This document shows positions 1,677 to 18,830 of a DNA stretch of 64,000 nt, one piece after another (positions within the stretch are counted from its first letter, which is position 1; every line of letters begins with the position of its first letter). Under the pieces are notes generated by a model. That model was not told the origin of the DNA, made no database searches, and saw only the letters and a program-made list of their open reading frames with translations. Source of the DNA: Candidatus Binatia bacterium (GTDB lineage: Bacteria > Desulfobacterota > Binatia > Bin18); assembly GCA_963666315.2 (NCBI GenBank), contig CAXXHG010000043.1, positions 320,001 to 384,000 on the forward strand, read 5' to 3'. A program made the position numbers and the translations under genes.

Positions 1677-1795
1677 ATGAGGCGGGCTACTGTCTTAAGT
1701 CCGGTACTGTCCAGCCGGAGCCAACATCACAAACTTGACGGTGAGAGGGCTAGAGTGCGGGGAGTCGAAAAGAAAGGCGTCCCTTACAGGATGCA

Positions 1796-2875
1796 TTAGA
1801 CATACCCCTGCTGGTGTAGATATTCTGCCGTAAGCACCGCGCCCTTGGCTGCCCCCATCTTTGTATTGTGACTCACCAGGACGTATTTGACCGCATTGTC
1901 GAGCGTGTGGTCTGGACGCAGACGACCGACTGACGTGGCCATGCCGTCTTCCGCATCACGGTCAAGACGAGGCTGGGGGCGAAATGGGTCATCGTGTACG
2001 ATGATCATGTGCTGCGGAGAAGACGGGAGCTCCAGCTGGATAAACTCTTTGCCAAATCCGATCATGGCTGCTCGTACGTCATCGACAGAGCAGGGTTGCT
2101 GCATAGAAGCCAGCATCGCTTCGGTATGACCTTCAAGAACAGGCACCCGGGTACACGTCGCGCTGACGAGAAAGTCTGCCGGTGTAATAGCCCCGCTGTC
2201 GAACGTCCCCAAAATCTTGTGATTTTCCTTTTCGACTTTTTCTTCTTCACCGGGAATAAACGGAATGACGTTGTCTATGGTGTCCATCCCCATAACACCA
2301 GGTGAACGACCCGCGCCAGACAGACCTTGCATAGATGTCATAATGACTTTCTGAAGACCAAATTGGTCAAATAATGGTTTCAGCGTAATTGCCAGTCCAA
2401 TGGTGGTACAGTTAGGCTGAGTGACAATATAACCTCGCCAGCCGCGCTTTTTCTTTTGGGTATCAATCAACTGAATGTGGTCGAGATTAACGCCTGGAAT
2501 CAGTAGCGGAACATCTGCCTCATAACGAAAGGCTGAGGCCGTGCTGACCACTGGTGTTGTCTTAGCGTACAGCGGCTCAAGGTCTCGGGCTGGCCCCGAT
2601 TCAACGGCCGTGAAGACAAGGTCTATCCCGTCAAGGTTGAGCGACGAGGCTTCATGCACAGGCAGCATCAATGTTCGTGGAGGTGGTTCTTCCTGACACC
2701 ACCAGCGTCGTTCTCCTGTTTTTGGGTCACGAATGGCTTCTGCATAGCTTTTGCCTGCCGAGCGTTCTGAGGCAGCGAGCAGGACAACTTCAAACCAGGG
2801 ATGGTTTTGAAGAGCAACCAGGAATTGCTGGCCGGCAATCCCGGTTGCCCCAACAATGGCAACACGCTTTTCCAT
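1796..2875 (-). CDS. asd: Aspartate-semialdehyde dehydrogenase (archaeal/fungal-like subtype)
   Basis: GATGIAGQ Rossmann motif, QPNCTT catalytic Cys, QGLSGAG, RVPVLEGH, HNTKMGAAKG. Confidence 0.93.
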   Translation of the reverse strand: MEKRVAIVGATGIAGQQFLVALQNHPWFEVVLLAASERSAGKSYAEAIRDPKTGERRWWCQEEPPPRTLMLPVHEASSLNLDGIDLVFTAVESGPARDLEPLYAKTTPVVSTASAFRYEADVPLLIPGVNLDHIQLIDTQKKKRGWRGYIVTQPNCTTIGLAITLKPLFDQFGLQKVIMTSMQGLSGAGRSPGVMGMDTIDNVIPFIPGEEEKVEKENHKILGTFDSGAITPADFLVSATCTRVPVLEGHTEAMLASMQQPCSVDDVRAAMIGFGKEFIQLELPSSPQHMIIVHDDPFRPQPRLDRDAEDGMATSVGRLRPDHTLDNAVKYVLVSHNTKMGAAKGAVLTAEYLHQQGYV

Positions 2876-2991
2876 AGCAGGTAAATCAACGCGAGGTGGG
2901 TCTACTTGTCAACACCCTACACCGAGCAGTTGACTTCCACAGCACAAGCACGCAGACTTCTAGAACTCCTTTGCGCGCAGGAGCAATACCC

Positions 2992-3075
2992 ACGGCACTT
3001 GAGTATTTTGAAGAATATGGAATCGGCGTGGAGTTTGCGACCAAAGCCCGTACAATTACCGAAGCCGATATCGTC
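2992..3075 (+). pseudogene. 5' relic of a MaoC-family dehydratase
   Basis: AGGAG RBS (2979-2983), ACG in place of a start codon, then ALEYFEEYGIGVEFATKARTITEADIV, matching the MaoC N-terminal pattern YFED..G..F.T..RTITEADIV; truncated just before glcD. Confidence 0.6.
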
Positions 3076-3097
3076 GAGAAAAACAATAGGTATTCCT

Positions 3098-4522
3098 ATG
3101 GATGAAAAAGTTGTGAATCGGCTGTGTGAACTGGTCGGCCCGGATGGGGTGGTGGCCAACAAAAACGCGCTCTCGGTCTATGACTGCGACGGATATACGC
3201 TGGAAAAATCCATCCCTGAGATCGTGGTCCTGCCGCACTCAACCGAAGAAGTTTCAGCGGTTGTTAAATTTCTGAACAAAGAAAAGATCGCCTTTGTTCC
3301 TCGCGGGGCTGGGACGGGACTGAGTGGTGGCTGCCTGCCGGTCGAGGCACCGGTCATGATAGGCACGAGTCGGCTCAATAAGATTGTGCATATCGACGTG
3401 CTGAATCGCTACGTTGTTGCCCAGTCTGGAGTGGTAAACCTGTGGGTGAGTAACGCCGTAAAAGATCAGGGCTTACAGTATGCACCTGACCCGTCTAGCC
3501 AGCAGGCGTGCACCATAGGCGGCAACGTGGCCGAGAACTCTGGTGGTCCACATACGCTCAAATACGGTGTTACGACCAACCATGTGCTAGGCCTGGAAGT
3601 CGTTCTGCCTGATGGAGAAATCGTGACCTTAGGCGGAACTGTGGAAGACGTCCCTGGTTATGACCTGCGCGGCATTACCATTGGTTCAGAAGGTACGTTT
3701 GGCATTGTCACCCAAGCTGCTCTACGACTGACGCGTCAGCCGCAAGCCTACCGGACCTTTCTGGCCGTATTTGAGTCCGTTCACCAGGCAACCCAAACAG
3801 TATCGGGCATTATTTCCTCCGGCATTGTTCCCGCCGCTCTGGAAATGATGGACACGCTTATCATCCAAGCTGTAGAGGAAGCCTTTCATTTCGGCTTTCC
3901 AACCGATGCCGGTGCTGTGCTGATCATCGAAATTGACGGCCTTACCGCCAGCCTTGATCCGCAGACAATCAAGATTCAGGACGTTTGTAAGCAGAATAAC
4001 GCCCGTGAGGTCCGTATCGCCCGCGACGATGCCGAACGTATGGCGTTATGGAAGAGTCGTAAGCGTGCGTTCGGGGCAATCGGGCGTTTATCTCCGAATT
4101 ATTGTACCCAAGATGGTGTTGTCCCCAGAACAAAAATCCCTGAGATTTTGCGGCGTATCATCGCAGTGGCGGACAAGTACCAGCTTCGGATTGCCAATGT
4201 TTTTCACGCCGGAGACGGGAATATTCATCCGATTCTGTTGTATGATGAGCGCGATGCCGACGAAACCCAGCGTGTGGTCAAAGCGGGCCAGGAGATCTTG
4301 GAGGCCTGTATCGATCTGGGTGGAAGTCTGACCGGCGAGCACGGCATCGGCATAGAAAAAATGAACCTGATGCCGCTCATGTTCAGTCCAGAAGATCTTC
4401 TGGTCATGACCCAGCTCCGCTCTGTCTTTAATCCCGATAATCTGTGTAACCCGAACAAGATCATTCCGACACCAGGCGGGTGCATTGATGTCAAAACCCC
4501 TAGACGTCAAGTCCCGCTGTAG
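3098..4522 (+). CDS. glcD: Glycolate oxidase FAD-linked subunit
   Basis: PRGAGTGLSGG, PDPSSQQACTIGGNVAENSGG, HAGDGNIHP, GEHGIG; start taken at ATG 3098 rather than 2906. Confidence 0.9.
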   Translation: MDEKVVNRLCELVGPDGVVANKNALSVYDCDGYTLEKSIPEIVVLPHSTEEVSAVVKFLNKEKIAFVPRGAGTGLSGGCLPVEAPVMIGTSRLNKIVHIDVLNRYVVAQSGVVNLWVSNAVKDQGLQYAPDPSSQQACTIGGNVAENSGGPHTLKYGVTTNHVLGLEVVLPDGEIVTLGGTVEDVPGYDLRGITIGSEGTFGIVTQAALRLTRQPQAYRTFLAVFESVHQATQTVSGIISSGIVPAALEMMDTLIIQAVEEAFHFGFPTDAGAVLIIEIDGLTASLDPQTIKIQDVCKQNNAREVRIARDDAERMALWKSRKRAFGAIGRLSPNYCTQDGVVPRTKIPEILRRIIAVADKYQLRIANVFHAGDGNIHPILLYDERDADETQRVVKAGQEILEACIDLGGSLTGEHGIGIEKMNLMPLMFSPEDLLVMTQLRSVFNPDNLCNPNKIIPTPGGCIDVKTPRRQVPL

Positions 4523-4552
4523 CACGGGATCCTGCCCGAGAAAGCGAGACGC

Positions 4553-5836
4553 ATGAGCGAGGCTGAAGATCGCCAGAAATTTATTATTGATGGGAAAGAA
4601 CCGCAAACGGTTGCCTATCCCACATCCATCGACGAAGTTTCGCAACTTCTCAAAGAGGCGAATGAACAAGGCCGAGCGGTGAGCCCTATTGGGCACGGGA
4701 CGTTTCTGCATATTGGCGGGGTACCGAAACGCTATGATCTGGCGCTTTCCACCAAGGCCCTCAATCATATTGTTGACTACCATCCGATTGACATGACGGT
4801 AAGGGTTGAAGCAGGCATGACCCTGGCTCAGCTCCAAGCGACGCTTGGAGAACATGCTCAGTGGTTACCGCTCGACCCCCCCCTTCCTGAGCGAACGACT
4901 ATCGGCGGGATCATTGCTGCGAATTTGAATGGACCAGCCCGACTCTCCCAAGGGACCGTCCGTGACTTTTTGATTGGTTTGGGAGTCGTTCGGTCGGACG
5001 GGACATTGATCAAAGGTGGCGGCCAGGTGGTCAAAAACGTTGCCGGCTATGATCTGCCCAAGCTGTATTGTGGCTCGTTCGGCACGCTGGGCGTTATTGT
5101 CGAAGCCACTTTTATGGTGCGTCCGCGACCCGAGACGCAAATAACACTGGCATTCACGTTTCCCTCGGCTGAGAAAGCCGGGGAGGCTGCACTCAAGATC
5201 ACAGGCTCAGATTTGCAACCCTTTTTCCTTGAGCTGGCCAATTTCTCTCCTTGGACTCATTCGCCAGATCAGGTAGGCCAAGGGGAGAAAGAGAAGGAAT
5301 ACTGTCTGTTCTTGGGTTTTGCCGGCATCAGAGAAGAGGTGGATGATCAACGCGCACGCATCCGTGACATAATCGGTGAAGGGGAATATCAAGTTGAAGA
5401 GCTGGCGGAAGATACGGCACGGACGCTCTCGCAAACCTTGCGAGATTTTCCTGTATCCGGAAAGGCCGCGTTACGGTGTAAAGTCGGTCTTTTATCAACC
5501 CAGCTGGCAACGTTCTGTGCCGACCTGGATACAGAAGCGCAGCGCCGCCAGATTCCCGGACGTCTCTTAGCCCGGGCGGGCAATGGTGTCCTGTACTGTG
5601 CTTTTGATGCAGAAGCCGTTGCCAACGATCAGCTCTTGGGTCTGGTTGACTGGATACGTGTACATGCAACGCGAAACAATGGATTTGCCGTTGTTGAAGA
5701 GATCGCCTCGGCGCTTAAAGGACGAGCCGATGTGTGGGGTAACGTGGGAAAAGCGTTTCCTCTGATGCGAAAGCTAAAAGAAACCCTTGACCCGAACGGT
5801 ATTTTGAATCCCGGCCGGTTTGTTGGTGGGATATAA
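4553..5836 (+). CDS. glcE: Glycolate oxidase FAD-binding subunit
   Basis: GGQVVKNVAGYDLPKL, DPNGILNPGRF; lies between glcD and glcF. Confidence 0.88.
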   Translation: MSEAEDRQKFIIDGKEPQTVAYPTSIDEVSQLLKEANEQGRAVSPIGHGTFLHIGGVPKRYDLALSTKALNHIVDYHPIDMTVRVEAGMTLAQLQATLGEHAQWLPLDPPLPERTTIGGIIAANLNGPARLSQGTVRDFLIGLGVVRSDGTLIKGGGQVVKNVAGYDLPKLYCGSFGTLGVIVEATFMVRPRPETQITLAFTFPSAEKAGEAALKITGSDLQPFFLELANFSPWTHSPDQVGQGEKEKEYCLFLGFAGIREEVDDQRARIRDIIGEGEYQVEELAEDTARTLSQTLRDFPVSGKAALRCKVGLLSTQLATFCADLDTEAQRRQIPGRLLARAGNGVLYCAFDAEAVANDQLLGLVDWIRVHATRNNGFAVVEEIASALKGRADVWGNVGKAFPLMRKLKETLDPNGILNPGRFVGGI

Positions 5837-7096
5837 ATGGAAAACGTATCTTTTGTTGATCACGAAAAATTCTTTGACTGCGTGCATTGCGGCTTATGCC
5901 TGGCTGCATGTCCGACCTATGTCGAACTAGGCACAGAGATGGACTCGCCCAGGGGGCGTATTGTGATGATGCGTGCGCTCCAGGAGGGACACGCCGAGCT
6001 CAACGAGGAGGTCGTCCATCATCTTGACCTGTGCCTTGGCTGCCTGGCGTGTGAAACAGCCTGCCCGTCCGGGGTGCAGTACGGCAAACTCATCGAGGGT
6101 GCTCGGTCGTTTATCGAGCAGCATTACCATCGGTCGTTGCTCGAGCGGATCAAGCGCTGGACAATGAATAAGGTTTTCCCCAATACGTTGGCCATCCGCC
6201 TCTTCGCCCTGGTCCTGAAGACTGGGGCCGCACTCGGACTTGGCCGTTTTGCTCGGTCAGAAGTGATGCCACCGAAACTGCGCTACTGGTGTAGCCTGCT
6301 GCCGGAGCGCGGAACAGTGTCTTCTGCTTCCCTGCTTGAGCGCTATGCAGCGATTGGTGAGAAACGCTATACCGTCGCCGTCCTCTCTGGCTGTGTGATG
6401 CCGGCTCTATTTGGCGCAACGAATCAGTCCACAGTCAAGGTGCTGCGCCACAACGGCTGCGAAGTCCTTGTCCCCAAGGCTCAATCATGCTGCGGGGCGC
6501 TGCTGCTGCATAATGGCGATAAAGACTCGGCCCTGTCTCTGGCCAAACACAATATTGACGTCTTTAGCAAGCTTGAGTTTGATGCCCTCATCATCAACGC
6601 CGCTGGGTGTGGGGCGATGATGAAAGAGTACGATGACCTGTTCAAACACGATCCTGCCTACCGGGAAAAAGCTGAACGCCTGACGGAAAAAATGAAAGAT
6701 GTGGCCGAGTTTATTGGCAGCCTGCCGCTCAAGACGCCGACGCGTGAGGTGAGAGCGAAGGTCACCTATCATGATGCCTGTCACCTGGCACATGCACAGG
6801 GCGTCCGAGAGCAGCCGCGCGCCTTGCTTCAGCAGATTCCCGGCCTGACACTAACCGAGCTCCCTGAATCGGACTGGTGCTGCGGCAGTGCCGGCACCTA
6901 TAATCTGACCCAACCCGAAATGGCGGCCCAGCTGCTCGAGCGGAAAGTCGGCAATATCCAGACAACCGAGGCCGACGTCGTAGTGACCAGCAATCCGGGC
7001 TGTTTAATGCAGATCCGGGCTGGTCTGCAGCAGCGCGGATTGCCAATAAAAGCCGTGCATGCCATTGATCTGCTGGCTGAGGCCTACGAGGAGTAG
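5837..7096 (+). CDS. glcF: Glycolate oxidase iron-sulfur subunit
   Basis: Two CxxCxxCxxxCP ferredoxin motifs and two CCG domains (CCGAL; YHDACHLAH...CCGSAG). Confidence 0.92.
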   Translation: MENVSFVDHEKFFDCVHCGLCLAACPTYVELGTEMDSPRGRIVMMRALQEGHAELNEEVVHHLDLCLGCLACETACPSGVQYGKLIEGARSFIEQHYHRSLLERIKRWTMNKVFPNTLAIRLFALVLKTGAALGLGRFARSEVMPPKLRYWCSLLPERGTVSSASLLERYAAIGEKRYTVAVLSGCVMPALFGATNQSTVKVLRHNGCEVLVPKAQSCCGALLLHNGDKDSALSLAKHNIDVFSKLEFDALIINAAGCGAMMKEYDDLFKHDPAYREKAERLTEKMKDVAEFIGSLPLKTPTREVRAKVTYHDACHLAHAQGVREQPRALLQQIPGLTLTELPESDWCCGSAGTYNLTQPEMAAQLLERKVGNIQTTEADVVVTSNPGCLMQIRAGLQQRGLPIKAVHAIDLLAEAYEE

Positions 7097-7143
7097 CCTA
7101 CCATCAACTGCAGATTCCCGGCGATGCAAATTGGCAAAGCGGG

Positions 7144-8304
7144 TCACTTCACTTTAAGCATTTCCTGTTCGTCAAAGTCGTATAAGCGGAGACAGTTTTT
7201 CCACATGATCTTTTGTTTTGAGTCTAGTCCCACCCCAGGTAGCTCTAGAAACTCTTTGATCCCGTTCGGGAAAGGACCGTCGGCATGCGGATAATCCACA
7301 GACATGACAATATTATCGTCGCCGACCTTATCGACTGTGACAGCTAAGAGCTCTTCGTCGACGTCAGTACCAATAAAGCATTGGCGCTTAAAATATTCGC
7401 TCGGCTTAGCCGAGAGTTTTATTTCCTCGCCGCCACCATACTTCTTCCACTGGTCGTCGAGACGGTCTAACCACCATGGCAGCCAGCCACAATTGCCTTC
7501 CAGAAAACCTACCCGCAGGTCTGGAAAACGCTCAAGCACACCGCCCACAGTCATGGCACCCATCGCCAGCATCAGCTCCATGGGAAAGGCTGAGGAGTGG
7601 TTCAGCGTCCGGAAATTGGGATGGCCGCGATACCGATTCGTGGCGTAATCCTTAGACGCACCACCGCTGGTCCCGTGGAACGCCAGAGGCACGTTCAGCC
7701 GAGCGATCTCCTTCCACAGCACATCGCACTCGCGAGCGTTGAAATAGCGTCCATTGCAGGGCATGGGCAGGAGCACGACGGCAACATGGCCCTTGTCCTC
7801 TACCGCCCGCCGCGCTTCGGCTGCCGCGAGTTCAGGATCGTGCAGTGAAACAATGGCAGACGCTTTGAGACGCTGCGCGTTAGTCTGACAGTAATCGGCC
7901 AGCCAATCATTAAACGCTGCGCAATACGCAGTAGCATACTCCGGCTCTAAGTCATCAATCGAGACGACCATGTGGGCAAAGGTGCGATAGACAATGCCAA
8001 TATCGATGCCTTCGGCATCCATGGCTTCGAGCGTCGAGGCCGGCTCATACTTGCGCTCACGGACCGACTTATACAAATGCTCGGTTGGTGCGTCGAGGTA
8101 TTTCTGAGCCTTCACGACGTCTTCTGACTGGGCCCAGGGTGGAATCATTTGTCCCTGCACATCCCAATGCGGAAAATTGGTCGGGCTCCAACCCAGGTAA
8201 CGCGGCATCTTGTCACGGTATTTTTCGTCTATGTATTTTTCGTAGACCTCACCCGTCTCAATAACGTGGAGGTCGCTGTCCATGACATGAAAGCCTTCTC
8301 GCAT
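7144..8304 (-). CDS. Amidohydrolase_2 family protein
   Basis: DSDLH metal motif, PLAFHG, FLEGNCGW, SVDYPHAD; probable start MREGFHV at 8304. Confidence 0.88.
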   Translation of the reverse strand: MREGFHVMDSDLHVIETGEVYEKYIDEKYRDKMPRYLGWSPTNFPHWDVQGQMIPPWAQSEDVVKAQKYLDAPTEHLYKSVRERKYEPASTLEAMDAEGIDIGIVYRTFAHMVVSIDDLEPEYATAYCAAFNDWLADYCQTNAQRLKASAIVSLHDPELAAAEARRAVEDKGHVAVVLLPMPCNGRYFNARECDVLWKEIARLNVPLAFHGTSGGASKDYATNRYRGHPNFRTLNHSSAFPMELMLAMGAMTVGGVLERFPDLRVGFLEGNCGWLPWWLDRLDDQWKKYGGGEEIKLSAKPSEYFKRQCFIGTDVDEELLAVTVDKVGDDNIVMSVDYPHADGPFPNGIKEFLELPGVGLDSKQKIMWKNCLRLYDFDEQEMLKVK

Positions 8305-8467
8305 ATTTTTCTGTCCTCTCTGGGGCACAGTGATAATGTCTGACTAACATATCGGTTGTGCCGTTTGGCTCAAGAGGGCCGTCTACCCCCGATGAGCACC
8401 GAGGAGAATGGTCTTTGACGCCGGAATCCGGCACGATTTGGACCTGGAAAAAAGAAAAGAAAGGACA

Positions 8468-8512
8468 TGCCCCCGGCGCGATTCGAACGCACGACCCCCG
8501 GATTAGGAATCC
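8468..8512 (-). pseudogene. 3' half of tRNA-Arg(CCT), att-site-like remnant
   Basis: Minus strand reads GGA-TTCCTAA-TCC (anticodon arm, CCT), GGGGGTC, GTGCG-TTCGAAT-CGCGC (T arm), CGGGGGCA; no D arm or 5' acceptor strand upstream. Confidence 0.8.
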
Positions 8513-8661
8513 ATCCGTCCAAGTTTTGCGCCTATTCTGTGCCCTATTTTATAGGTAGTTAGAGACTAGTGCCGCATTCCTGTCCAGTCACTTGGGTCCA
8601 TTGCTAAGAAACTCCAGGGGCGGTCTCAGAAGGTGGGGCGCGGTCAGATTCTGCTCAAGGC

Positions 8662-8844
8662 AAGGTTGACTGGGCGGTGGAGATGGCGGAACTGCTGCGG
8701 ACACGTTACGCGGACGCGACCAGAGTCCTCTTAGTTTGCAACAACCTGAACACGCACCCGATGGGCACGTTTTACGAAGCGTTTCCCGCCGAGCAAGCCC
8801 GGGAGCTTGTGCGGCGGGTGGAGTTTCGGTACACCCCCAAGTAG
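8662..8844 (+). mobile_element. IS630-family transposase fragment
   Basis: Translates KVDWAVEMAELLRTRYADATRVLLVCNNLNTHPMGTFYEAFPAEQARELVRRVEFRYTPK*, the IS630 DNLNTH...YTPKHGSWLN region with D>N and a premature stop. Confidence 0.8.
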
Positions 8845-8877
8845 GGCTGTTTAGACAATTTAAAGAACGATATGAAC

Positions 8878-8947
8878 GGGTGTTGGGGAGTGGGTATTAC
8901 GGGTTAGTGAAATCCAACCCCCAGCCCCTAAATCCTAATCCCTTTTT
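8878..8947. repeat. Imperfect heptamer-repeat hairpin at the 3' end of the HpaB-like gene (possible terminator)
   Basis: G-rich units (GGGGAGT GGGTATT ACGGGTT) facing C-rich units (AACCCCC AGCCCCT AAATCCT AATCCCT). Confidence 0.45.
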
Positions 8948-10397
8948 ATTGTCCCTCTTTGATTCCCGCCAACTCACGAGCGTATGCCGCCGCGGCAGCA
9001 AAATCATATTCGCGGTAGGTCTGAATCTTTTCCGCTTCGAGCGACCCCTCGGCATGGACGGCTAAGACTTCTTGATAGCCGCCATAATCAGATGCGGTCA
9101 GATCAGAAATCAGATTCATCATCCGCAACCGGTGCTCGGTTGAGGTGCCCTTTTTTCCACCGAGATATTTCTGGACATACGGGCCGGTCGCTTCACTGCG
9201 CCAATCCTCGACACTCGGACCAGTGACGAGTAGCCCTCCGCTGACATCCTGTACCATCTGTACGGCCTGGTGATAGTTGGCCGCAAACTGGTATTTGGCC
9301 ACATTGGTCATCAGCGTGTTCGGCATCGCGATGCCCGGCGGCACAACTGAGTGCTGGTGGGCTGCTGCCAGAATCAACCCTTGGACGGTAGCGTGGTAGC
9401 TGGCCAATTTAGTCAGCTTCTCGCGAATATGACCGGCTTTCTCGATGCCGTTGTACTCGGCAATTGCCTGGGATGCGCCAGCCAGAAGTTCCAGCAAAGG
9501 CAGTTTATAAGAGACGGCAGTAAAGCGGTGAAATTTCACGAAGGTCAGGGCCATCAAACCCGCGGCTGCCACCTCGCCGGCCAAGAAAACGCGCTCCCAG
9601 GGGACAAACACATCGTCGAAGACCGTCAGCGTCTCCATCATTTTGTGCTTGGCGCTAATCGGATACTCGAAGGCATCTCTCTCGAAGCCACCATAGGAGC
9701 TGGCTAGGAGCTTCAGCCCTTTTGTGGCAGCAGGCACGGCAAATGCCACTGCGTAGTCTTCATCACCTTCGCGCATAGCGCGGGTAGGCAGGACAATGAT
9801 TTCGTCCGTATTCGTGGACACTGAGGTATGGATCTTCGCTCCGCGGACGACGATACCGTCGTCACGCCGGTCCACAATCCGTAAATAATAATCTGGATGT
9901 TCCTGCCCCTGGGGGCCCAGGCTACGGTCGCCTTTTACGTCGCTCTGTGCCACGGCAACGGCGTAATCGTTGTCGCGACACAGTTCATAATACTTTTGTA
10001 CCCGTTCACGATATTGTCCCGCGCCGTGTTTGGCCATCTCTTCGGCGACAATATGGAGAGCGAAGAGTGCGTCCGTACCGATTTCTTTGATCAGAATCAC
10101 CAAGGTCGCGCCCTCGCGGGTGCCGGCCGCAATCAAGCGACTGCGTTGGAGAAGATCTTCGGTATTGCGCGGGATATGGTAAAAGCGCGAATATACTACG
10201 CCGGTCTCGGGATCCGTGACAACGGCGAGATCACGATAGCGTGGGTCTTCGGCCATCTGATAGTCGATGCAGGCGTGTTCAACCGCCTTCCTAATCACAG
10301 GATGGGTGGTAACATCGTCGACCTTCTCGCCCCGATAATAGACCTCCCGGCCGTCTCGCAGACTCTCTTTATATTGCTCCGGTGTGCGCAAACCCAT
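8946..10397 (-). CDS. 4-hydroxyphenylacetate 3-hydroxylase / 4-hydroxybutyryl-CoA dehydratase family flavoprotein
   Basis: RTPEQYKESLRDGREVYYRGEKV N-terminus, QSDVKGDRS, GIVVRGAKIH, FDDVFVPWERVF. Confidence 0.88.
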   Translation of the reverse strand: MGLRTPEQYKESLRDGREVYYRGEKVDDVTTHPVIRKAVEHACIDYQMAEDPRYRDLAVVTDPETGVVYSRFYHIPRNTEDLLQRSRLIAAGTREGATLVILIKEIGTDALFALHIVAEEMAKHGAGQYRERVQKYYELCRDNDYAVAVAQSDVKGDRSLGPQGQEHPDYYLRIVDRRDDGIVVRGAKIHTSVSTNTDEIIVLPTRAMREGDEDYAVAFAVPAATKGLKLLASSYGGFERDAFEYPISAKHKMMETLTVFDDVFVPWERVFLAGEVAAAGLMALTFVKFHRFTAVSYKLPLLELLAGASQAIAEYNGIEKAGHIREKLTKLASYHATVQGLILAAAHQHSVVPPGIAMPNTLMTNVAKYQFAANYHQAVQMVQDVSGGLLVTGPSVEDWRSEATGPYVQKYLGGKKGTSTEHRLRMMNLISDLTASDYGGYQEVLAVHAEGSLEAEKIQTYREYDFAAAAAYARELAGIKEGQ

Positions 10398-11036: not shown

Positions 11037-11546
11037 TCACTTCTCGCGCACAGTTTGCAGAGATAGAGACTGCAGGGTGAGCCGGAGCAGTGTTGTTGGA
11101 GCCTTTGGTACAGAGGAGGATTCCGAACTCGTCACTGTTCCCAATTCCTCCAGCTTGTCACGCAGCTCGGTCAATTTTGCAGAGGGGACAGAGAGAACGA
11201 TCAGGTCTTTTTCATCTTTCACCAATACCGCTGCCTCAAACTGCTGGATAACGGCCCGCACCTCGGCATGCATTTCTGCCGGGCCTTGCTGATCTTTTTG
11301 ATCTTGCTGATCTTGGCTCGAGAACTCCCAGGAAAGGGTAATGATAATACTACCACTCCCCTCAGGAAAAGCGGAAGCGCCGTCTTGAGACCAGCCTGGC
11401 AGTGCTGAACTGAACGTCAGCACCAATAGAGTCAGGCCCAAAACAAGACAGACAAGACGGGATTGATATTTCCTTTGCATTTGTTTTTCCATACCTGCGT
11501 CCCCCATTCTCATTGTGCCGTCTTCTCTAGCCCGAGAAAAGACCAT
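11037..11546 (-). CDS. Hypothetical exported protein
   Basis: Signal-peptide-like LVCLVLGLTLLVLTFSSALPG; start uncertain. Confidence 0.55.
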   Translation of the reverse strand: MVFSRAREDGTMRMGDAGMEKQMQRKYQSRLVCLVLGLTLLVLTFSSALPGWSQDGASAFPEGSGSIIITLSWEFSSQDQQDQKDQQGPAEMHAEVRAVIQQFEAAVLVKDEKDLIVLSVPSAKLTELRDKLEELGTVTSSESSSVPKAPTTLLRLTLQSLSLQTVREK

Positions 11547-11642
11547 CTTTTGGTCAGCGCTACTCCTCGTGTCTCATTTGCGTTGCAATCAAACACAGCG
11601 TACTGTCTGCGGCATACTCACACGTAGCCAGCCCACTCTTAT

Positions 11643-12143
11643 ATGGCAAGACGTCAACCCAAGAACGTCAAGGGACGTACGCAACAAGACAAAAGAATCG
11701 GGGCAACACTCCTTCGTATTCTGGGCGGACTATCGACCGAGGAACTCAGTGACCCCGACAAGACAGCCCGCTCGATAGACCGAACCGTTCGTATTATTGC
11801 GGCCTATACTGTCGTGGCCGCATTCGCGATTTTCTTTTTATCGATTCCCAGTTTTATTCGACCGGACGGCAGTCTACACGTAGAAAATTTTGCAGCATTT
11901 TTCCGGATTGGAAATCAGTTCGCTGATTGCCTGGCGCTCCTCTCGCTGAGCCTTTTTCTTGCACGCTCAAAAAACCTGCCCATTGCAGTTATCCTCGCAG
12001 GCCTCGCCGGCTTTGAATCGTATGTCTACGCGCAACACTTCGTAATGCACGATTTTGTCATGCTGCTGATGAGTCTCATGGTCCTGGTGCACGCCCTCCA
12101 GATTCTGGGACTCCTGATCTTCGGACACAAAAACGCCGCGTAA
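11643..12143 (+). CDS. Hypothetical membrane protein (about 4 TM)
   Basis: Basic N-terminus followed by hydrophobic segments; ends 16 bp before the symporter gene. Confidence 0.7.
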   Translation: MARRQPKNVKGRTQQDKRIGATLLRILGGLSTEELSDPDKTARSIDRTVRIIAAYTVVAAFAIFFLSIPSFIRPDGSLHVENFAAFFRIGNQFADCLALLSLSLFLARSKNLPIAVILAGLAGFESYVYAQHFVMHDFVMLLMSLMVLVHALQILGLLIFGHKNAA

Positions 12144-12159
12144 ACAATAGAGACGATGT

Positions 12160-14075
12160 ATGACCATCTTTATTGCCTCCATTCTCTCCTTGATGGCTAT
12201 GCTGTGGGCCTTGGGCTGGTATGCCAAGCGCTGGGTCCATACCGACAGTGACTATCTCCTGGCCGGGAGACAGGTCAGTCTGATTCCCGGTATCGCCAGC
12301 ATCTGCGGGATCGCTTTTGCGGGCAGCATGACGAGCATCATCCCTGGCTTAACCGTCCAGTACGGCTTTCTCGGCTGGATCTTAGGCGGCAGTCTGCCCT
12401 TGGTGATTGGCTATATTTTGTATGGCGTCTTCGCCTGTCCCTATATCCGACGCTGTGGGGCGTACACGATTCCTGAGTGGCTGGAAATGCGATTTGATAC
12501 CCGCACTCGTGTGGTGGTGAGCATTGCCACGCTGCTCGGTGTCACCGGTATTGTGGCCATGAACGTTGTCGCCATGGCGTTCATTATGCAGGGCTTTCTT
12601 GACGCTCCGCTGTGGCTCATGATTACTATTGTCCTGGCTGGGCATCTGGCATTTATTTTCATGGGTGGTCTGTGGGCGCTCACCCTGACCGATGTCGTTC
12701 AGGTCCTGCTGGGGTTTCTCTTCCTGCCAGCGCTGGCGGTGTACTGTCTCGTCACTTTTGGCGGCTGGGAGCTGATTAAGACGCAGTTTGTCAGCCCGAC
12801 TCCCCTGTCAGCCGGCCTGCTGGGACCTTTTCCTTGGTTCCAGTTGAGCTATCCGAGCGTACTCACCGCCACGCTGTTGCTGTGCATCTTCATCCAATGG
12901 GCGGGAACTATTACTGGCTGCGCGCCGCTGCTGCACGCACAGAACCGGTCGCGCAGTGGCAATTTATTATCGGCGGACTGCTCGTGCTCATCATCCATGG
13001 TTCTATGGGCGTGCTTGGCCTATACGCGGGCAGTGTGTACCGCGAGGCATTTCTCGATAGTGCGAACCCGGCCAACCCAATGAGCGCGTATGGTCTCCTG
13101 ATGCGGGATTTTCCTGCAGGCATCGCATTATTAGGTTTGGTTGCCGCACTTGCCGCGACGATCTCAACCACGAGCAATGCGCATATGGGCATCACGTCAA
13201 CGCTGGCGCGTGATATCTATCAGCGCTTTATCCGCCCCAACGCCACGCCAGAAGCGGTGCTGCAAACGAGCCGCATTCTCACCCTGCTCAGCGGCATTGT
13301 CATATGGCTGCTGTGTTTCTACCCAGGCGGGCCGTATTTTCTCCTGGGCGTGAGTTGCGCCATGCTCGGTCCGACGGCTTTTGTTTTTCTGCTCGGGCAT
13401 CGTTGGACGTATATCACCTCTGCTGGAGCGTTTTGGAGTACGCTGGTCGGGGCAGTGGCGATGCTTGTATACGAAATCCTCAAACTGACCGGGGTACCCG
13501 TTGGATCGGTGCATACCGTTATTATCGGTACCGTCATCACGCTGCCGACCGTACTCGGCGTGTCTTTCTTCACCCAACAAAAGCCGGACGGCACTCTTGC
13601 CGGAGACCAGTCACATACCGTCGCCCTCAGTCCCGATCAGCAGCGCCTGCTGAGGCTCATTCGCACCGGCTATACAACTATGGTCGAACTGAGCGACTTC
13701 ATGGCGCTGCATGCAGTCGGGTGTCATCGTCTCATCACAGAACTCGAACGCATAGGCCTGATCCAGCGCTGGGGATCACGTGGACTTGATTTTTTCACCT
13801 TTGCCTTAACGGCAAAAGGAGACGCCCACCTCTCCCAGTTCCCCAATTCGCCGGCCGGTTTTGTGACGCAAGACGCGGATAGCCGTACCGTTCTGGAGCA
13901 GCTCAAACACGAAGCCAAAAATCTCCAGACGCTGAGTACGACCACGGGAATGGCCCCGTCGATGCTCAGCGTGGTCGTCAATCGGCTCGACCAGCTCGGC
14001 TATGTGAGCGGGTCTGGCATATGGCAACGGACCATCACCCTGTCAGAAAAAGGGCGCGTGCTGGTGTCCCCCTAA
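12160..14075 (+). CDS. Sodium:solute symporter (SSS) fused to two C-terminal winged-helix domains; single-base frameshift at about 12900
   Basis: DYLLAGRQ, YTIPEWLEMRFD, GGLWALTLTDVVQ, AATISTTS...TLARDIYQRF; ORFs 12160-13083 and 12834-14075 join as IQW-GGNYYWLR if one G is added to the run at 12899-12901. Confidence 0.8.
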
Positions 14076-14156: not shown

Positions 14157-15269
14157 ATGTCTCACACTATTGTCGATACCATACTGCCAACAACCATGGT
14201 GGGCTCTTATCCCCGACCGCACTGGTTTACCTATCAGCTCCACGGGCGAGATATTTGGGATGCATTCAAGGACGTCAACCACGCCGAAGCCTTTGAAGAT
14301 GCCGTGCGGACCGTGCTGCGAGACCAAGAGCAGGCCGGTCTCGACATTCTCACCGACGGCCAGATGTGGTTCGACGACTACGGCGGCTGCATTGGGTCCT
14401 TTGTGTGGTATTGGTACGAACGCATTCACGGCTTTGTCCCGGTCAAACATAGCCATCCGCTTGTCGAAGGCGGGAATGTGTCACAAAACGATGCCGCCTG
14501 GTTAACCGACTGGGGCGCAACATCGGTAACAGACACAGTCAGACGCGGACCGCTGCGGTTGGCCGACCTATACCATATCGCCCAACGTAATACGCATAAG
14601 CCGGTGCGGTGTAGCGTGGGAGCCGGACCGATTAACCTCACCTATCATGTCCATCTCGAACACTACAAAACCCAGAAAGATCTCGCCTACGCTTTGGTGC
14701 CTATCTTTAATGCTGAGATGAAAGAAATGGTGGCCGGCGGGGCGACCTTCTTACAATTAGAAGACCTTGGAGTGTGGCTGCCCGTGTTGAGCGGGAATAC
14801 CGATGACTTTGACTGGGTAGTGGACGTCATCAATAAAACCGTTGACGGCGTTGAAGCGAAGCTCTCGTTGCATTTCTGCTTTGGCGCCGCATGGGGCAAT
14901 ACCTCACGAGGCTTATTCCCGTCAGACGCAGGCTATGGTTCTCTCTTACCGCATCTGCATGACATACAGATTGAACAGTATGTGCTCGACTTTGCCGTCC
15001 GAGAAATGGAAGATGCGCATATTCTGAAAGACCTTCCCCAGGACAAAGAAGTCGCCGTGGGTGTCATTGATGTGCGCAACCTTCAGATTGAAACACCCGA
15101 ACAAGTCGCACAACGCATCCGTAAGGTGCTCAAGTTCATCCAGCCGGAACGCCTCACCCTCACCACCGACTGCGGTCTGCGTGCTCTGCCCCGCTTCTGT
15201 GCCTATAATAAACTGCGCGCCATGGTTGAAGGCGCACGGATAGTTCGAGCTGAGATTGCAGGCGGCTAA
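14157..15269 (+). CDS. Cobalamin-independent methionine synthase II family (MetE C-terminal-like) Zn thiol-alkyltransferase
   Basis: PTTMVGSYPRP, QEQAGLDILTDG, Zn ligands HFC and TTDCGL, GVIDV; no N-terminal folate-binding barrel. Confidence 0.88.
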   Translation: MSHTIVDTILPTTMVGSYPRPHWFTYQLHGRDIWDAFKDVNHAEAFEDAVRTVLRDQEQAGLDILTDGQMWFDDYGGCIGSFVWYWYERIHGFVPVKHSHPLVEGGNVSQNDAAWLTDWGATSVTDTVRRGPLRLADLYHIAQRNTHKPVRCSVGAGPINLTYHVHLEHYKTQKDLAYALVPIFNAEMKEMVAGGATFLQLEDLGVWLPVLSGNTDDFDWVVDVINKTVDGVEAKLSLHFCFGAAWGNTSRGLFPSDAGYGSLLPHLHDIQIEQYVLDFAVREMEDAHILKDLPQDKEVAVGVIDVRNLQIETPEQVAQRIRKVLKFIQPERLTLTTDCGLRALPRFCAYNKLRAMVEGARIVRAEIAGG

Positions 15270-15328: not shown

Positions 15329-16186
15329 CTAACAGAACGATAGGCTGGCTGGTGTTGTGTTTCCATTGTGCGACACGCGGGTTGGTGCAACGTTTTTTGA
15401 CGCAATCTTAATATGCCAGGGTTCAAAGCGTACGCCGAACAGATTGTTTTTCGGATATCGAATTTCAATATACCCAAAGGCCGCCAATTGTTTGAACACC
15501 TCCGTCTTGGCAAACTCGGAGGTAAAATTTCGCCCACCGAGGCCCTGCTCGCCTACATCAAAATCGCCGATGGCATGATACGAATAGCCCGGTGGGGCAA
15601 GCGAACGGAAGGCCATAGACAGATTCCCCCGTGTCTGGGCTACCTTGGCGAGAAACAGATGGGTCTGTTTAATAATCCCGCGGACGCCGGACGTGAGCAG
15701 CAGCTGGTCGCCGATGACGTACTGAATTTCTCGATACTCGCTAGTCGCCTCCTCATAAAAGATACGTTCCAAAAAATCGATCTCACGGCGCGGAAAGCGC
15801 CCCACTCGGGAATAGCGACGGGCCACGCGGAGGGCATGATCAAAACCGAGGATTTGAAAATTCCCGTGTCCGACTATGACTTGTAACCGGCCTAAACGCC
15901 CCACAACACTATGCAGGAGTGTACGCTCGCTCAGACTCAGGTGTATGTCGGACGGGTGGGGCCGGTTAAAGCGGGTAAGCTTTTGGAAATACTCTTGGCC
16001 GTATTGTTGTTTTGCCGCAAGCTGGCGTCCGGAGGATAGGTGTCCGGAGGACAGATTCAGAGAAGGACCGAGCGGTCCTTCTCTGAGGCCGCCATCCACA
16101 GCGTTGAGGGACACGTGGACAAACCAGGCTTCCCCTATGGCCACCACCCCGCCTACCACCGCCTTCAAAAAACCACGTCTTTCCAT
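15329..16186 (-). CDS. M15B (VanY-like) D-Ala-D-Ala carboxypeptidase with Tat-like signal, possibly internally deleted
   Basis: RRGFLK twin-arginine motif; TSGVR, APPGYSYHAIGDFD, EPWH motifs. Confidence 0.75.
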   Translation of the reverse strand: MERRGFLKAVVGGVVAIGEAWFVHVSLNAVDGGLREGPLGPSLNLSSGHLSSGRQLAAKQQYGQEYFQKLTRFNRPHPSDIHLSLSERTLLHSVVGRLGRLQVIVGHGNFQILGFDHALRVARRYSRVGRFPRREIDFLERIFYEEATSEYREIQYVIGDQLLLTSGVRGIIKQTHLFLAKVAQTRGNLSMAFRSLAPPGYSYHAIGDFDVGEQGLGGRNFTSEFAKTEVFKQLAAFGYIEIRYPKNNLFGVRFEPWHIKIASKNVAPTRVSHNGNTTPASLSFC

Positions 16187-16505
16187 ACAGGTAACGGCCG
16201 CAGCACGTCAGAATATTCTGGAGCAGCCCACTATGCAGGGGAGTTCTGCAGTCCGGAAATTCTACGTTTCCCTCTTTCTGTCCCAGTAATTTGCTATCGT
16301 AATAGCACAGTGTCCAGTCTCCCAGGTCCTTTTCCTGACAGGCTCTCTGCTTTTGTTCAAAATTGGCGACTCATTTGGCGACCACTCAAGAGCCGCATCA
16401 ACTCCCTCGGGCAAAGACAGAACAGATATCGTCCTGTACTCTTATTCAGTGTGACATGATGAGGATCACTTCAAAACAGTCATGCTGGTGAAGGAGAAAT
16501 AACTT

Positions 16506-17441
16506 ATGGCAACAAGTACTATTCCGTGCGGTATTTCTGTTCCTCAAGTCTTTCCCGACACACCGCTTGACACTCCGCTTGATATGGCCTTCATCCGGAA
16601 TTTCGTCCAACGGGCCGAAGCCCTAGAGTATGAAAGTCTGTGGGTGCAAGAGACGATTGTCAGCGACTACCCCATTCTCGAACCAGTCAGTCTGCTCAAC
16701 TATATTGCCGCCCTCACCTCAAAAGCGCGGCTGGGCACGTCCGTCCTATTGACGGTCCTGCGGAATCCAGTCCAGCTGGCCAAAAGCCTCTCGAGTTTAG
16801 ATCACATGAGCGCCGGCCGGCTCACGGTCGGTGTCGGCATAGGTGGCCACGTCCCGGAATCCATCTTTGGTTATACGAGCGAACTCCGCGCGCGACGGTT
16901 TGTTGAGGGCATCAAGGCCATGAAAGCCCTCTGGACGGAACCCAAAGCCACAGTCAGCGGGACGTTCTGGAATTTTGCAAATATCGCTATGGAACCCAAG
17001 CCGATCCAGAAACCCCATCCTCCGATCTGGTTTGGCGCGCGCCAGGAAAAGCCGCTCAAACGGGCAGTCCGGCATGGCGATGGCTGGATGGGTGCCGGTT
17101 CATCCTCAACCCAAGATTTTGTCAAGCAAATACACATGCTGCGCCAATTCCTGGACGAAGCCGGCCGTGACCCGGCAACGTTTACGATCTCGAAACGGGT
17201 CTATGTCGCCATTGATAATGACCGCGATCGGGCTGAACGGCGCCTGCGGGCATGGTTTGGCGTGCGGTATAAAAATGCAGACATGGCCTCGCAAGTGTCT
17301 GTCTGGGGCAGCCTGGATGAGTGTCGTAACAAGCTCGGCGAGGTCGTCCAGGCCGGGGCGCAGCACCTCTTACTCAATCCGGCTTTTGACGACATGGAAC
17401 ACCTGGAGCTTCTGGCGAAAGAGGTTATTCCGCATCTCTAA
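16506..17441 (+). CDS. LLM-class flavin/F420-dependent oxidoreductase
   Basis: AEALEYESLWV, RLGTSVL, SLDHMSAGRLTVGVGIG, PKPIQKPHPPIWFG. Confidence 0.9.
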   Translation: MATSTIPCGISVPQVFPDTPLDTPLDMAFIRNFVQRAEALEYESLWVQETIVSDYPILEPVSLLNYIAALTSKARLGTSVLLTVLRNPVQLAKSLSSLDHMSAGRLTVGVGIGGHVPESIFGYTSELRARRFVEGIKAMKALWTEPKATVSGTFWNFANIAMEPKPIQKPHPPIWFGARQEKPLKRAVRHGDGWMGAGSSSTQDFVKQIHMLRQFLDEAGRDPATFTISKRVYVAIDNDRDRAERRLRAWFGVRYKNADMASQVSVWGSLDECRNKLGEVVQAGAQHLLLNPAFDDMEHLELLAKEVIPHL

Positions 17442-17600
17442 AGTCCCAGGGAAACGCGGGCAGAGCATCTCCTTCTCAAGCCTCGTCCTCCGAAGCAATA
17501 GTTTGCTCCGAGTTCAGGTTTCCGTGTAGCAAGGGGAAGAATCCCCTTTTCTTTGTCCACATTTTCTGTCACAGGGTATGTCGCGAGGAGGACATCCAGC

Positions 17601-18830
17601 ATGATCACGATGAATGAACACTACCTCAAGCTTCAGGCATCTTATCTGTTTTCCGATATTGCCAAGCGCGTCAACGACTACCAAGCCAACAATCCAGACC
17701 AAACCATCATTCGGTTAGGGATCGGGGATGTGACCCGTGCCCTGCCGGACGCCTGTATCACCGCCTTTCACAAAGCCGTTGATGAAATGGCCGACGATGC
17801 CACTTTTCGTGGGTATGGACCCGAGCTGGGTTATGACTTTTTGCAAGAAGCCATTGTTGCTGGAGATTTCCAGCCACGCGGCGTCGACCTGACCCCGGAT
17901 GAAATCTTTGTGAGCGACGGTGCGAAGTGTGATTCCGGGAATTTCCAAGAACTTTTTTCTGCGGATATTCGCATTGCCGTTCCGGACCCGGTCTACCCGA
18001 CCTATGTCGATACCAATGTCATGGCAGGGCGAACGGCAGCCTGGAAAGACGGCCGATATGAGGGACTCGTCTACCTTGAGTCCACACAGGCCAACAATTA
18101 TGTCCCGGACTTACCCCAGGAAAAAGTAGACCTGATCTATCTGTGTTTTCCTAATAATCCAACCGGCAGCATGGTGACCAAAGACCAGCTATGTCCTTGG
18201 GTAGAGTACGCGCGCGCAAACAAAGCCCTCATTCTGTACGATGCCGCCTATGTGGAATTTATCCGTGACGACAGTTTGCCGCACAGCATTTATGAAATCG
18301 ACGGAGCCAAAGACGTGGCCGTAGAATTCCGGAGCTTGTCAAAAACTGCCGGCTTTACGGGTACGCGGTGTGCCTACACAATCGTACCAAAAGCGTGTCG
18401 GGTATATGATACGCGAGGCAATACCCATGCGCTTCATGCACTCTGGGATCGGCGTCAATCAACGAAGTTCAATAGTGTCTCTTACCCCGTCCAGCGCGCG
18501 GCTGAGGCAGCGTTCTCGCCCGAAGGAAAAGCCCAGGTCCGTGAACTGAGTGACTATTATCTCGGTAACGCCGCCTTGATTCGGGAGACTGTCAACAGGC
18601 TGGGCTACCAATCTGTCGGCGGCCAACACTCGCCCTACGTATGGATCAAAACCGATACGGACTCGTGGCAGTTCTTCGATCTGTTGATGCAGAAAGCCGG
18701 CGTGGTGTGCACGCCGGGATCCGGGTTCGGCAAGTGCGGTGAAGGCTATGTGCGACTCAGTTCTTTTAATAGTCGAGAAAACGTTGAGACTGCGCTGCAG
18801 CGAATCTCAGCCGCGCTTGGTAAAGCATAG
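17601..18830 (+). CDS. dapL: LL-diaminopimelate aminotransferase
   Basis: YLFSDIA, IRLGIGDVT, SDGAKCD, CFPNNPTG, SLSKTAGFTGTRC, TPGSGFG; RBS GAGGAGG before ATG 17601. Confidence 0.95.
   Translation: MITMNEHYLKLQASYLFSDIAKRVNDYQANNPDQTIIRLGIGDVTRALPDACITAFHKAVDEMADDATFRGYGPELGYDFLQEAIVAGDFQPRGVDLTPDEIFVSDGAKCDSGNFQELFSADIRIAVPDPVYPTYVDTNVMAGRTAAWKDGRYEGLVYLESTQANNYVPDLPQEKVDLIYLCFPNNPTGSMVTKDQLCPWVEYARANKALILYDAAYVEFIRDDSLPHSIYEIDGAKDVAVEFRSLSKTAGFTGTRCAYTIVPKACRVYDTRGNTHALHALWDRRQSTKFNSVSYPVQRAAEAAFSPEGKAQVRELSDYYLGNAALIRETVNRLGYQSVGGQHSPYVWIKTDTDSWQFFDLLMQKAGVVCTPGSGFGKCGEGYVRLSSFNSRENVETALQRISAALGKA

Follow-up and report, generated by a model that had tools for sequence, protein, structure and literature searches.

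The symporter locus

The window analysed here is a stretch of 64,000 nucleotides from a Candidatus Binatia bacterium (assembly GCA_963666315.2, contig CAXXHG010000043.1, positions 320,001 to 384,000 of the forward strand), and the gene under study lies at its positions 12160-14075 (Table 1). This region is one sodium:solute symporter (SSS; PF00474, TC 2.A.21) transporter gene split by a 1-nt deletion, and its encoded sequence runs on beyond the last of 13 transmembrane (TM) helices into a tail of two tandem winged helices of the MarR type (WH1 and WH2). The symporter with its tandem winged helices is a conserved and widespread SSS subfamily, and we put the probability at roughly 0.55 that the winged-helix module binds the inner face of its own transporter as an accessory or regulatory domain. 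The gene in the window is a recent pseudogene, so it is the family rather than this copy that is of interest.

Table 1. Positions of the symporter gene, its parts and its neighbours in the window, and of the two genes at the split archaeal locus L083 (TM, transmembrane helix; ORF, open reading frame; AF2, AlphaFold2)
Feature	Position	Strand	Basis or remark
HpaB-like monooxygenase	8946-10397	-	part of the Binatia synteny group
Divergent 169-aa ORF	11037-11546	-	N-terminal hydrophobic segment; no Pfam family above cut-off
166-aa predicted membrane ORF	11643-12143	+	ends 16 nt upstream of symporter; no Pfam match
Symporter ORF 1	12160-13083	+	307 aa, frame 1
Symporter N-terminal part	12160-12901	+	frame 1, from TM1 to about TM7, as far as the break; collinear with P0001 residues 1-247
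Symporter ORF 2	12834-14075	+	413 aa, frame 3; overlaps ORF 1
GGG run	12899-12901	+	frameshift site; one G short relative to intact relatives
Symporter C-terminal part	12902-14075	+	frame 3, about TM7 to TM13, then tail and stop codon; 90% identity to P0001
Tail, last 157 aa	13602-14072	+	region after TM13
Winged helix 1 (WH1)	13632-13808	+	tail residues 11-69 in AF2 model
Winged helix 2 (WH2)	13875-14066	+	tail residues 92-155 in AF2 model; conserved wing tip G-I-W-x-R
MetE-like (Meth_synt_2) gene	14157-15269	+	Pfam PF01717, 84.1 bits; downstream of symporter
SSS gene of locus L083	4332-6008		558 aa
Tandem winged-helix gene of locus L083	6001-6516		171 aa; overlaps SSS gene by 8 nt; GGAGGG upstream of ATG

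Both open reading frames of the split gene matched the SSF profile (PF00474; cut-off 22.8 bits), ORF 1 with 57.8 bits over profile positions 1-231 of 406 and ORF 2 with 46.4 bits over positions 243-406, and NCBIfam gave SSS matches at superfamily level only. The closest database protein, P0001, is intact at 641 aa and 90% identical to the window symporter. At the break P0001 reads IQWGGNYYWLRAA where the window encodes IQWAG in frame 1 and GGNYYWLRAA in frame 3 (in a longer view, IFIQWGGNYYWLRAAAART in P0001 against IFIQWAG in frame 1 and GGNYYWLRAAAART in frame 3), and from this comparison one G is missing from the run at 12899-12901. The motif WGGNYYW occupies the break position in P0001 and 52 other family members. 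The window gene, split at this run, does not have an intact reading frame and is inactivated by the 1-nt deletion.

Fold of the tail

Profile matches on the tail were all to winged helix-turn-helix (wHTH) families, spread over both repeats and below the Pfam cut-offs (MarR_2 23.7 bits, cut-off 27; MarR 20.4, cut-off 24.6; HVO_A0261_N 24.5, cut-off 35; DprA_WH 21.3, cut-off 22.9; HTH_IclR 17.2, cut-off 22), with further sub-threshold matches to HTH_24 and LexA_DNA_bind; neither MarR profile (PF01047, PF12802) matched the window tail above its curated cut-off. An AlphaFold2 (AF2) model of the tail, made from a 25-sequence alignment (A1), reached a pLDDT of 91.8 and consisted of two H1-H2-H3-hairpin units, the first with helices at tail residues 11-21, 27-34 and 38-50 and strands at 54-56 and 66-69, the second with helices at 92-100, 108-115 and 119-131 and strands at 135-138 and 144-147. 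When the repeats were compared with 48,161 Protein Data Bank representatives by VIA-align, WH2 (model residues 85-157) matched BpsR best (Z 13.3, root mean square deviation [rmsd] 1.3 Å over 71 residues), followed by HpaR, MarR-DNA and others at Z 12, and WH1 (model residues 8-81) matched MepR best (Z 11.9). Taken together, both repeats superposed on MarR-family wHTH cores (Z 11.9-13.3, rmsd 0.9-2.0 Å, 70-72 residues), and both have the winged helix-turn-helix fold. A preliminary description of this DNA had read the gene as a symporter with a C-terminal extension of about 150 aa holding two MarR/wHTH-like repeats at about 13625-13830 and 13870-14070; the SSF matches, the AF2 model and the VIA-align scores (Z 12-13) bear this out, and the coordinates agree with those of WH1 and WH2.

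MarR homodimers are built from N- and C-terminal helices that flank the wHTH. No such dimerisation helices were present in the AF2 model of the tail, which has two repeats of about 70 aa without a flanking helical bundle, and the VIA alignments cover the winged-helix core of the MarR chains only (e.g., residues 42-117 of 139 in BpsR). As a whole, the tail was matched best in Foldseek by tandem winged-helix proteins, namely SelB WH2-4 (E 9e-5), AlkX/YcaQ and ScpB (E to 4e-4), with query-normalised TM-scores of 0.29-0.39 and rmsd of 8-15 Å; because these scores are so low, the arrangement of the two domains appears to have no solved counterpart. Protein Atlas placed the tail in generic wHTH clusters only (PadR, TrmB/MarR_2; scores 0.90-0.93), which gave no functional lead.

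Distribution of the fused form

The 413-aa ORF matched 87 database proteins, 82 of them intact at 631-670 aa, and most of these relatives aligned over 93-95% of the query, tail included. Their database names are 'sodium:solute symporter family' or 'hypothetical' only. A scan of one genome per species returned 187 genome stretches with a relative, of which the best 80 were kept, together with the window, for the locus analyses. In these best 80 of 187 the match reaches query residues 635-641, and the hosts are Ca. Binatia, Bacillota (Virgibacillus litoralis, Brevibacillus panacihumi, Bhargavaea, Edaphobacillus, Geomicrobium and others), Spirochaetaceae, Pseudothermotoga/Thermotogota and Clostridia. 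Each Ca. Binatia genome has two paralogues, whose identity to P0001 is about 75% and about 62%. The combination of SSF and wHTH could be followed through an alignment of 53 members, all of which matched the SSF profile while 29 matched MarR_2 at E≤1e-3 (best 5.7e-12), and through a comparison of neighbourhoods across loci. HisKA, HATPase, STAC and PAS had no Pfam match at E≤1 on the C-terminal ORF or tail, nor were they among the 16 families found on the 53 members. The architecture given in the preliminary description thus stands in each respect: the tail models as wHTH, homologues carry it and intact fusions exist.

A separately encoded module in an archaeon

An exhaustive search with the tail alone retrieved 61 proteins, some of them fragments or small proteins and the others the C-terminal ends of SSS proteins about 650 aa long. 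Each of the 15 small proteins retrieved (156-171 aa) starts with methionine and aligns from its first ten residues. Split loci were sought in metagenomes with a single stand-alone winged-helix protein, P0117, whose host one source labels a Bathyarchaeota archaeon (contigs up to 1.69 Mb), and P0117 was recovered on two metagenome contigs at 98% identity. At locus L083 the winged-helix gene directly follows and overlaps an SSS gene (Table 1), whose product shows 28% identity with P0001 and 30% with P0077 and has the YYW and KPKY motifs in common with them. We read the 8-nt overlap as coupled translation, which suits a subunit better than a regulator. Beside the pair at L083 lie genes for a PF04199 cyclase, a metallo-beta-lactamase and an FAA hydrolase, and in Bacillota the fused genes are flanked by these families too. 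Fused and split forms are a Rosetta-stone pair, with the winged-helix module the functional partner of this SSS subfamily either way; it is fused in bacteria and separately encoded in at least one archaeal lineage.

It is also worth noting that the L083 symporter has about 60 extra C-terminal residues past KPKY, which align weakly to part of WH1 and may be the remnant of a third winged helix.

Predicted docking of the tail on the transporter

The full-length protein was modelled as the homologue P0001 rather than as the broken window gene. With a 53-sequence alignment, AF2 gave a pLDDT of 89.8 and a pTM of 0.90 over 641 aa, with 13 long membrane helices. Foldseek matched the core to SiaT (E 4e-13), SGLT1/2, CHT1 and NIS, consistent with a LeuT-type fold of about 13 TM helices, and none of these solved SSS structures has a winged-helix tail. 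A topology of 13 TM helices is the one given for SSS/PutP in a 2021 review of the family (PMC7918813). With 13 helices and the known PutP topology the C-terminus should be cytoplasmic, and the tail probably holds a fixed position on the core, since a pTM of 0.90 over 641 aa is not expected with a free tail of 150 aa.

The core (residues 1-478, alignment A2) and the window tail (alignment A1) were also co-folded as two chains, alongside three controls. The interface score ipSAE was 0.75, 0.74 and 0.75, against 0.00, 0.01 and 0.00 for the controls, with 75-78 contacts, all at an expected error of <8 Å, a partner pLDDT of at least 78, and contact agreement between runs of at least 94%. In a calibration, 58 of 80 solved complexes and 2 of 110 mismatched pairs scored as high as the mark, a comparison that is rough here, with alignments of our own making. 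On the tail side, the predicted interface takes in H2, the turn and the start of H3 of WH1 (residues 26-28, 31-32, 35, 37-39 and 42), the wing of WH1 (59-62 and 65-66), H2 and H3 of WH2 (108-109, 119-120, 123, 127 and 131), and the wing tip of WH2 (G-I-W-Q-R, 139-143). On the core side it takes in residues 25-43, 94-110, 175-176, 260-261, 355-364 and 414-417, located at the cytoplasmic ends and loops of TM1/2, TM3/4, TM6, TM7/8, TM9/10 and TM11/12; the residue pairs of lowest error joined WH1 with core residues 95-110. In this predicted complex, the surfaces that MarR-type domains use for DNA, both HTHs and both wings, would be buried against the transporter.

These models suggest how the module might act. 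WH1 would clamp the TM3-TM4 loop (PYIRRCGAYTIPEWLEM), and the 'recognition' helix of WH2 and its G-I-W-x-R wing would cover the cytoplasmic ends of TM2, TM6, TM7/8 and TM9/10. The inner-gate helices of the LeuT fold are 1a, 5, 6b and 8, to which TM2, TM6, TM7 and TM9 of the SSS would correspond; by analogy with LeuT-fold transporters, the elements under WH2 would form the inner gate. MarR-type domains are often ligand-responsive, and a module docked in this way could stabilise or gate the transporter, possibly on a cytoplasmic ligand. The gene product is a 13-TM symporter of a distinct subfamily; its cytoplasmic C-terminal module most likely is no DNA-binding regulator and would dock on its own transporter's cytoplasmic face as an accessory or regulatory subunit.

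Conservation and charge

Positions at the core interface were enriched for conservation of at least 90% (12/35 versus 57/443 elsewhere, one-sided Fisher P = 0.0017). Four of the core residues (W25, G100, W107 and R260) occur in 48-53 of the 53 members and likewise in the SSS of the archaeal split form, and all four differ in 3/3 tail-less SSS relatives. In the wing of WH2, G623 is invariant, R627 is 91% conserved and W625 74%; in the HTH of WH1 the conserved residues include acidic ones (E513 96%, D516 100%, D521 81%, E530 74%). Across the 53 tails, the median net charge is -2 and the median isoelectric point (pI) 6.2. The window tail has a charge of +1 and a pI of 8.2.

Genomic context

Neighbouring ORFs were clustered from the best 80 loci and the window, and neighbours within 6 kb of the symporter were counted in 35 non-Binatia loci. 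The Binatia order is HpaB-like monooxygenase (-), 169-aa ORF (-), 166-aa membrane ORF, symporter, MetE-like gene, luciferase-like monooxygenase (LLM) and aminotransferase. With the window included, homologues of the 166-aa membrane ORF (cluster c8) lie directly upstream of the symporter at 23 loci and MetE-like genes (cluster c18) downstream of it at 18; the divergent 169-aa ORF is conserved in 19 loci. The 166-aa product may be a small accessory transporter subunit. The second Binatia paralogue lies between amidohydrolase_2/DUF3237/BNR genes and a histidyl-tRNA synthetase (HisRS) gene. Outside Binatia, the symporter is accompanied by a PF04199 'putative cyclase' gene at 28/35 loci, and by genes for BKACE (12/35), FAA hydrolase (7/35) and thiolase (5/35). 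These neighbours, with the HpaB-like, amidohydrolase_2 and LLM genes of Binatia, suggest that the breakdown of an aromatic, heterocyclic or beta-keto acid compound is encoded here.

A separate regulator gene of some kind is found near the symporter at 29/35 non-Binatia loci (TrmB-like at 11, sigma54 activator at 9, MalT/LuxR at 5, GntR at 4), and none was seen beside the symporter at the Binatia loci, the window included. The regulator families vary between lineages while the tail is constant, and the tail would therefore serve the transporter, not the promoter.

In the window, positions 2906-10397 and 15329-18830 around the symporter gene hold two FAD-linked oxidases, a CCG/4Fe-4S protein (glycolate-oxidase-like), amidohydrolase_2 and the HpaB-like monooxygenase, as well as the luciferase-like monooxygenase, the aminotransferase and a VanY-type peptidase; the genes around the window symporter suggest oxidative catabolism. 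A block conserved in at least 80% of 23 aligned loci, ATTTGC.TTG...ACAC.GCGTA (window 11576-11603), lies about 40-65 nt upstream of the ORF at 11643, and a scan for the sigma70 consensus called no promoter at it. No conserved dyad was seen in the 200-nt alignment upstream of the small membrane ORF across the 23 Binatia loci, a result that, with the sigma70 scan, speaks neither for nor against an operator. Between the divergent genes that precede the symporter operon, seven of these 23 loci (L003, L007, L009, L010, L011, L013 and L021) carry about 55 nt of inserted sequence. This insertion contains a perfect 13-nt inverted repeat, AATGAGTAAACGT...ACGTTTACTCATT, is absent from window 11546-11643, and could be either a regulatory hairpin or a small mobile repeat.

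Accessory domain or DNA-binding regulator

Several points weigh against a module that belongs to its transporter. The docking is itself a prediction, examined at the level of its contacts; it supports binding and does not show it. Although the core side of the interface is conserved, the tail side is not significantly so (positions at least 90% conserved, 4/28 versus 9/129 elsewhere, P = 0.18), and the invariant D516 may serve the fold, possibly by pairing with the invariant R540 inside its own domain, and not the interface. The comparison with tail-less transporters is a small sample of three relatives, and the split form is verified in one lineage (two loci at 98% identity). Eighteen of the 53 tails are basic (pI above 7.5). 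R627, whose position is presumably that of the DNA-contacting wing arginine of MarR proteins, may be a retained DNA-binding residue. Finally, at the Binatia loci, which lack a neighbouring regulator, a regulatory role of the tail would not be redundant.

The last three of these points, together with the close match of both domains to DNA-binding regulators (Z 12-13) and the existence of a soluble stand-alone form, favour the idea of the preliminary description that the protein is a one-component transceptor acting on transcription. The winged helices would bind operator DNA once released, and the docked state would be the 'off' state of a transport-coupled switch, with the module tethered when fused and free when split, like Mlc sequestered by PtsG; that the docked interface is exactly the DNA-binding faces is what such a sequestration switch would need. 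We nevertheless regard it as unlikely. The tail aligns with MarR proteins only over winged-helix cores of about 70 aa and lacks their dimerisation helices, the HTH of WH1 has acidic conserved residues and H3 of WH2 mostly small or hydrophobic ones, and the tails as a group are not basic, with a median charge of -2. Dedicated regulators of four different families accompany the symporter at 29 of 35 non-Binatia loci while the tail stays the same, the gene overlap at L083 is more subunit-like, and the upstream region of the 23 Binatia loci revealed no conserved dyad. A transport-state-gated form, in which the DNA-binding faces are held on the inner gate, released on turnover or ligand, and then bound to DNA, with the fused form acting at the membrane and the split form in the cytoplasm, appears equally doubtful; if true, it would be a direct bacterial and archaeal transceptor made from an SSS transporter and a single-chain MarR pseudo-dimer. 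Of the preliminary interpretation, the transporter, the MarR-like repeats and the conserved fusion hold up, and the DNA-binding transceptor is disfavoured by the predicted burial of its DNA faces, the separate regulators and the near-neutral tails; no observation requires DNA binding as its explanation. Its alternative, a winged-helix pair serving as a protein-interaction module, fits better.

Such a pair might instead be an adaptor that recruits or sequesters a neighbouring regulator (TrmB-like, sigma54 activator, MalT-like or GntR) or the PF04199 cyclase at the transporter, as in the trigger-transporter systems MalK-MalT and LysP-CadC. The frequency of regulator (29/35) and cyclase (28/35) genes at non-Binatia loci would suit this role, as would the best two-domain fold matches, which are tandem winged-helix binders of partners or RNA (ScpB, SelB). 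The reading is improbable, however, given that the partner families vary by lineage while the tail is conserved, that Binatia loci have none of these regulators, and that much the greater part of the conserved surface of the tail is already taken up by the predicted transporter interface. A domain without regulatory input, there purely for the structural purposes of folding, stability or oligomerisation, would account for the extensive predicted docking (75-78 contacts) and for a fusion that is constant across phyla, but tail-less SSS relatives exist and are presumably functional, and the separately encoded version suggests a dissociable subunit, which makes this explanation improbable as well.

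Relation to known systems

Literature searches, which did not extend to supplements, found no published description of an SSS-winged-helix fusion, and the word 'winged' does not occur in the 2021 SSS review (PMC7918813). The fusions covered there join SSS domains to sensor-kinase modules, and how the two are coupled is still called enigmatic (PMC7918813). As in CbrA and MxtR/CrbS (SSS + STAC + PAS + HisKA + HATPase), a 13-TM SSS is followed C-terminally by cytoplasmic domains of signalling type, and the fused and split winged helices recall the STAC domain of CbrA/CrbS-type systems, which is either embedded or a separate protein (PMC7918813). Unlike CbrA/CrbS, the symporter tail has no STAC, PAS or kinase, and two MarR-type winged helices that are predicted to dock back take their place. 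Each repeat shares the wHTH core with the MarR regulators BpsR, HpaR, MepR and MarR (Z 12-13); the tail differs from them in having two winged helices in one chain, in its membrane tether, in the lack of dimerisation helices and in its acidic conserved HTH residues.

In the membrane-integrated one-component regulators ToxR, CadC and TcpP, a wHTH of the OmpR type at the N-terminus is combined with a single TM helix and a periplasmic sensor. They share with the symporter a wHTH held at the cytoplasmic membrane face, the idea behind the preliminary description, but the repeats of the symporter are of the MarR type and come C-terminally, after 13 TM helices of a transporter, and the evidence does not support DNA binding by them. 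Soluble domains or subunits on the cytoplasmic face modulate transporters in several cases, including the STAS domain of SulP/SLC26, the C-terminal domains of MetN and ModC, and GlnK on AmtB; both the folds and the transporter families differ from those of the symporter-winged-helix proteins. Tandem winged helices also occur in SelB (WH2-4), ScpB and AlkX/YcaQ, where they make RNA, protein or non-regulator DNA contacts, although none of them reproduces how the two domains of the tail are placed with respect to each other.

A well-studied family (PutP, SGLT, NIS, SiaT) gains a cross-phylum subfamily with a repurposed transcription-factor fold, confidently predicted to lie over the inner gate. 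If the docking is true, this would be a new mode of regulation for a LeuT-fold transporter and a case of a wHTH recruited away from DNA; if the tail leaves the transporter for DNA, the protein would amount to a minimal transceptor. The family can be tested in cultured hosts, among them Virgibacillus litoralis, Brevibacillus panacihumi, Bhargavaea and Pseudothermotoga.

Origin of the frameshift

Twenty public runs cover the stretch at least in part, and four were compared over window positions 12500-13300, as assembled contigs rather than raw reads and at low depth. Runs X15, X18 and X19, from three studies and with three different organism labels, each gave one contig identical to the window over 801 bases (0 differences, 0 gaps; word depths 7.2, 2 and 4.4, respectively). 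One of the three is possibly the source of the assembly, which leaves at least two independent observations. In X1, a marine-sediment metagenome, a 539-nt contig spanning part of the compared stretch had 6 substitutions and an extra G behind position 12898, the intact allele. The preliminary description had correctly placed a single frameshift in the G run, and had supposed that it may be a sequencing error, which is unlikely given the same GGG allele in contigs of three runs from three studies; the 1-nt deletion is probably a real mutation fixed in this lineage rather than an assembly error. Programmed frameshifting or slippage was considered and rejected as unlikely: the frame would be restored by a -1 shift at CAA-UGG-GCG, a site that does not form a slippery heptamer, and 53/53 aligned relatives have a single frame.

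The same genome (92% complete), in which the window is part of contig C43, holds an intact 640-aa paralogue on contig C27 (positions 1486-3408 on the minus strand of locus L082), adjoining a histidyl-tRNA synthetase gene. The window-identical contigs come from runs with three different organism labels, and marine sediment and seawater metagenomes contain 40-67% of the window's words; this bacterium may be host-associated.

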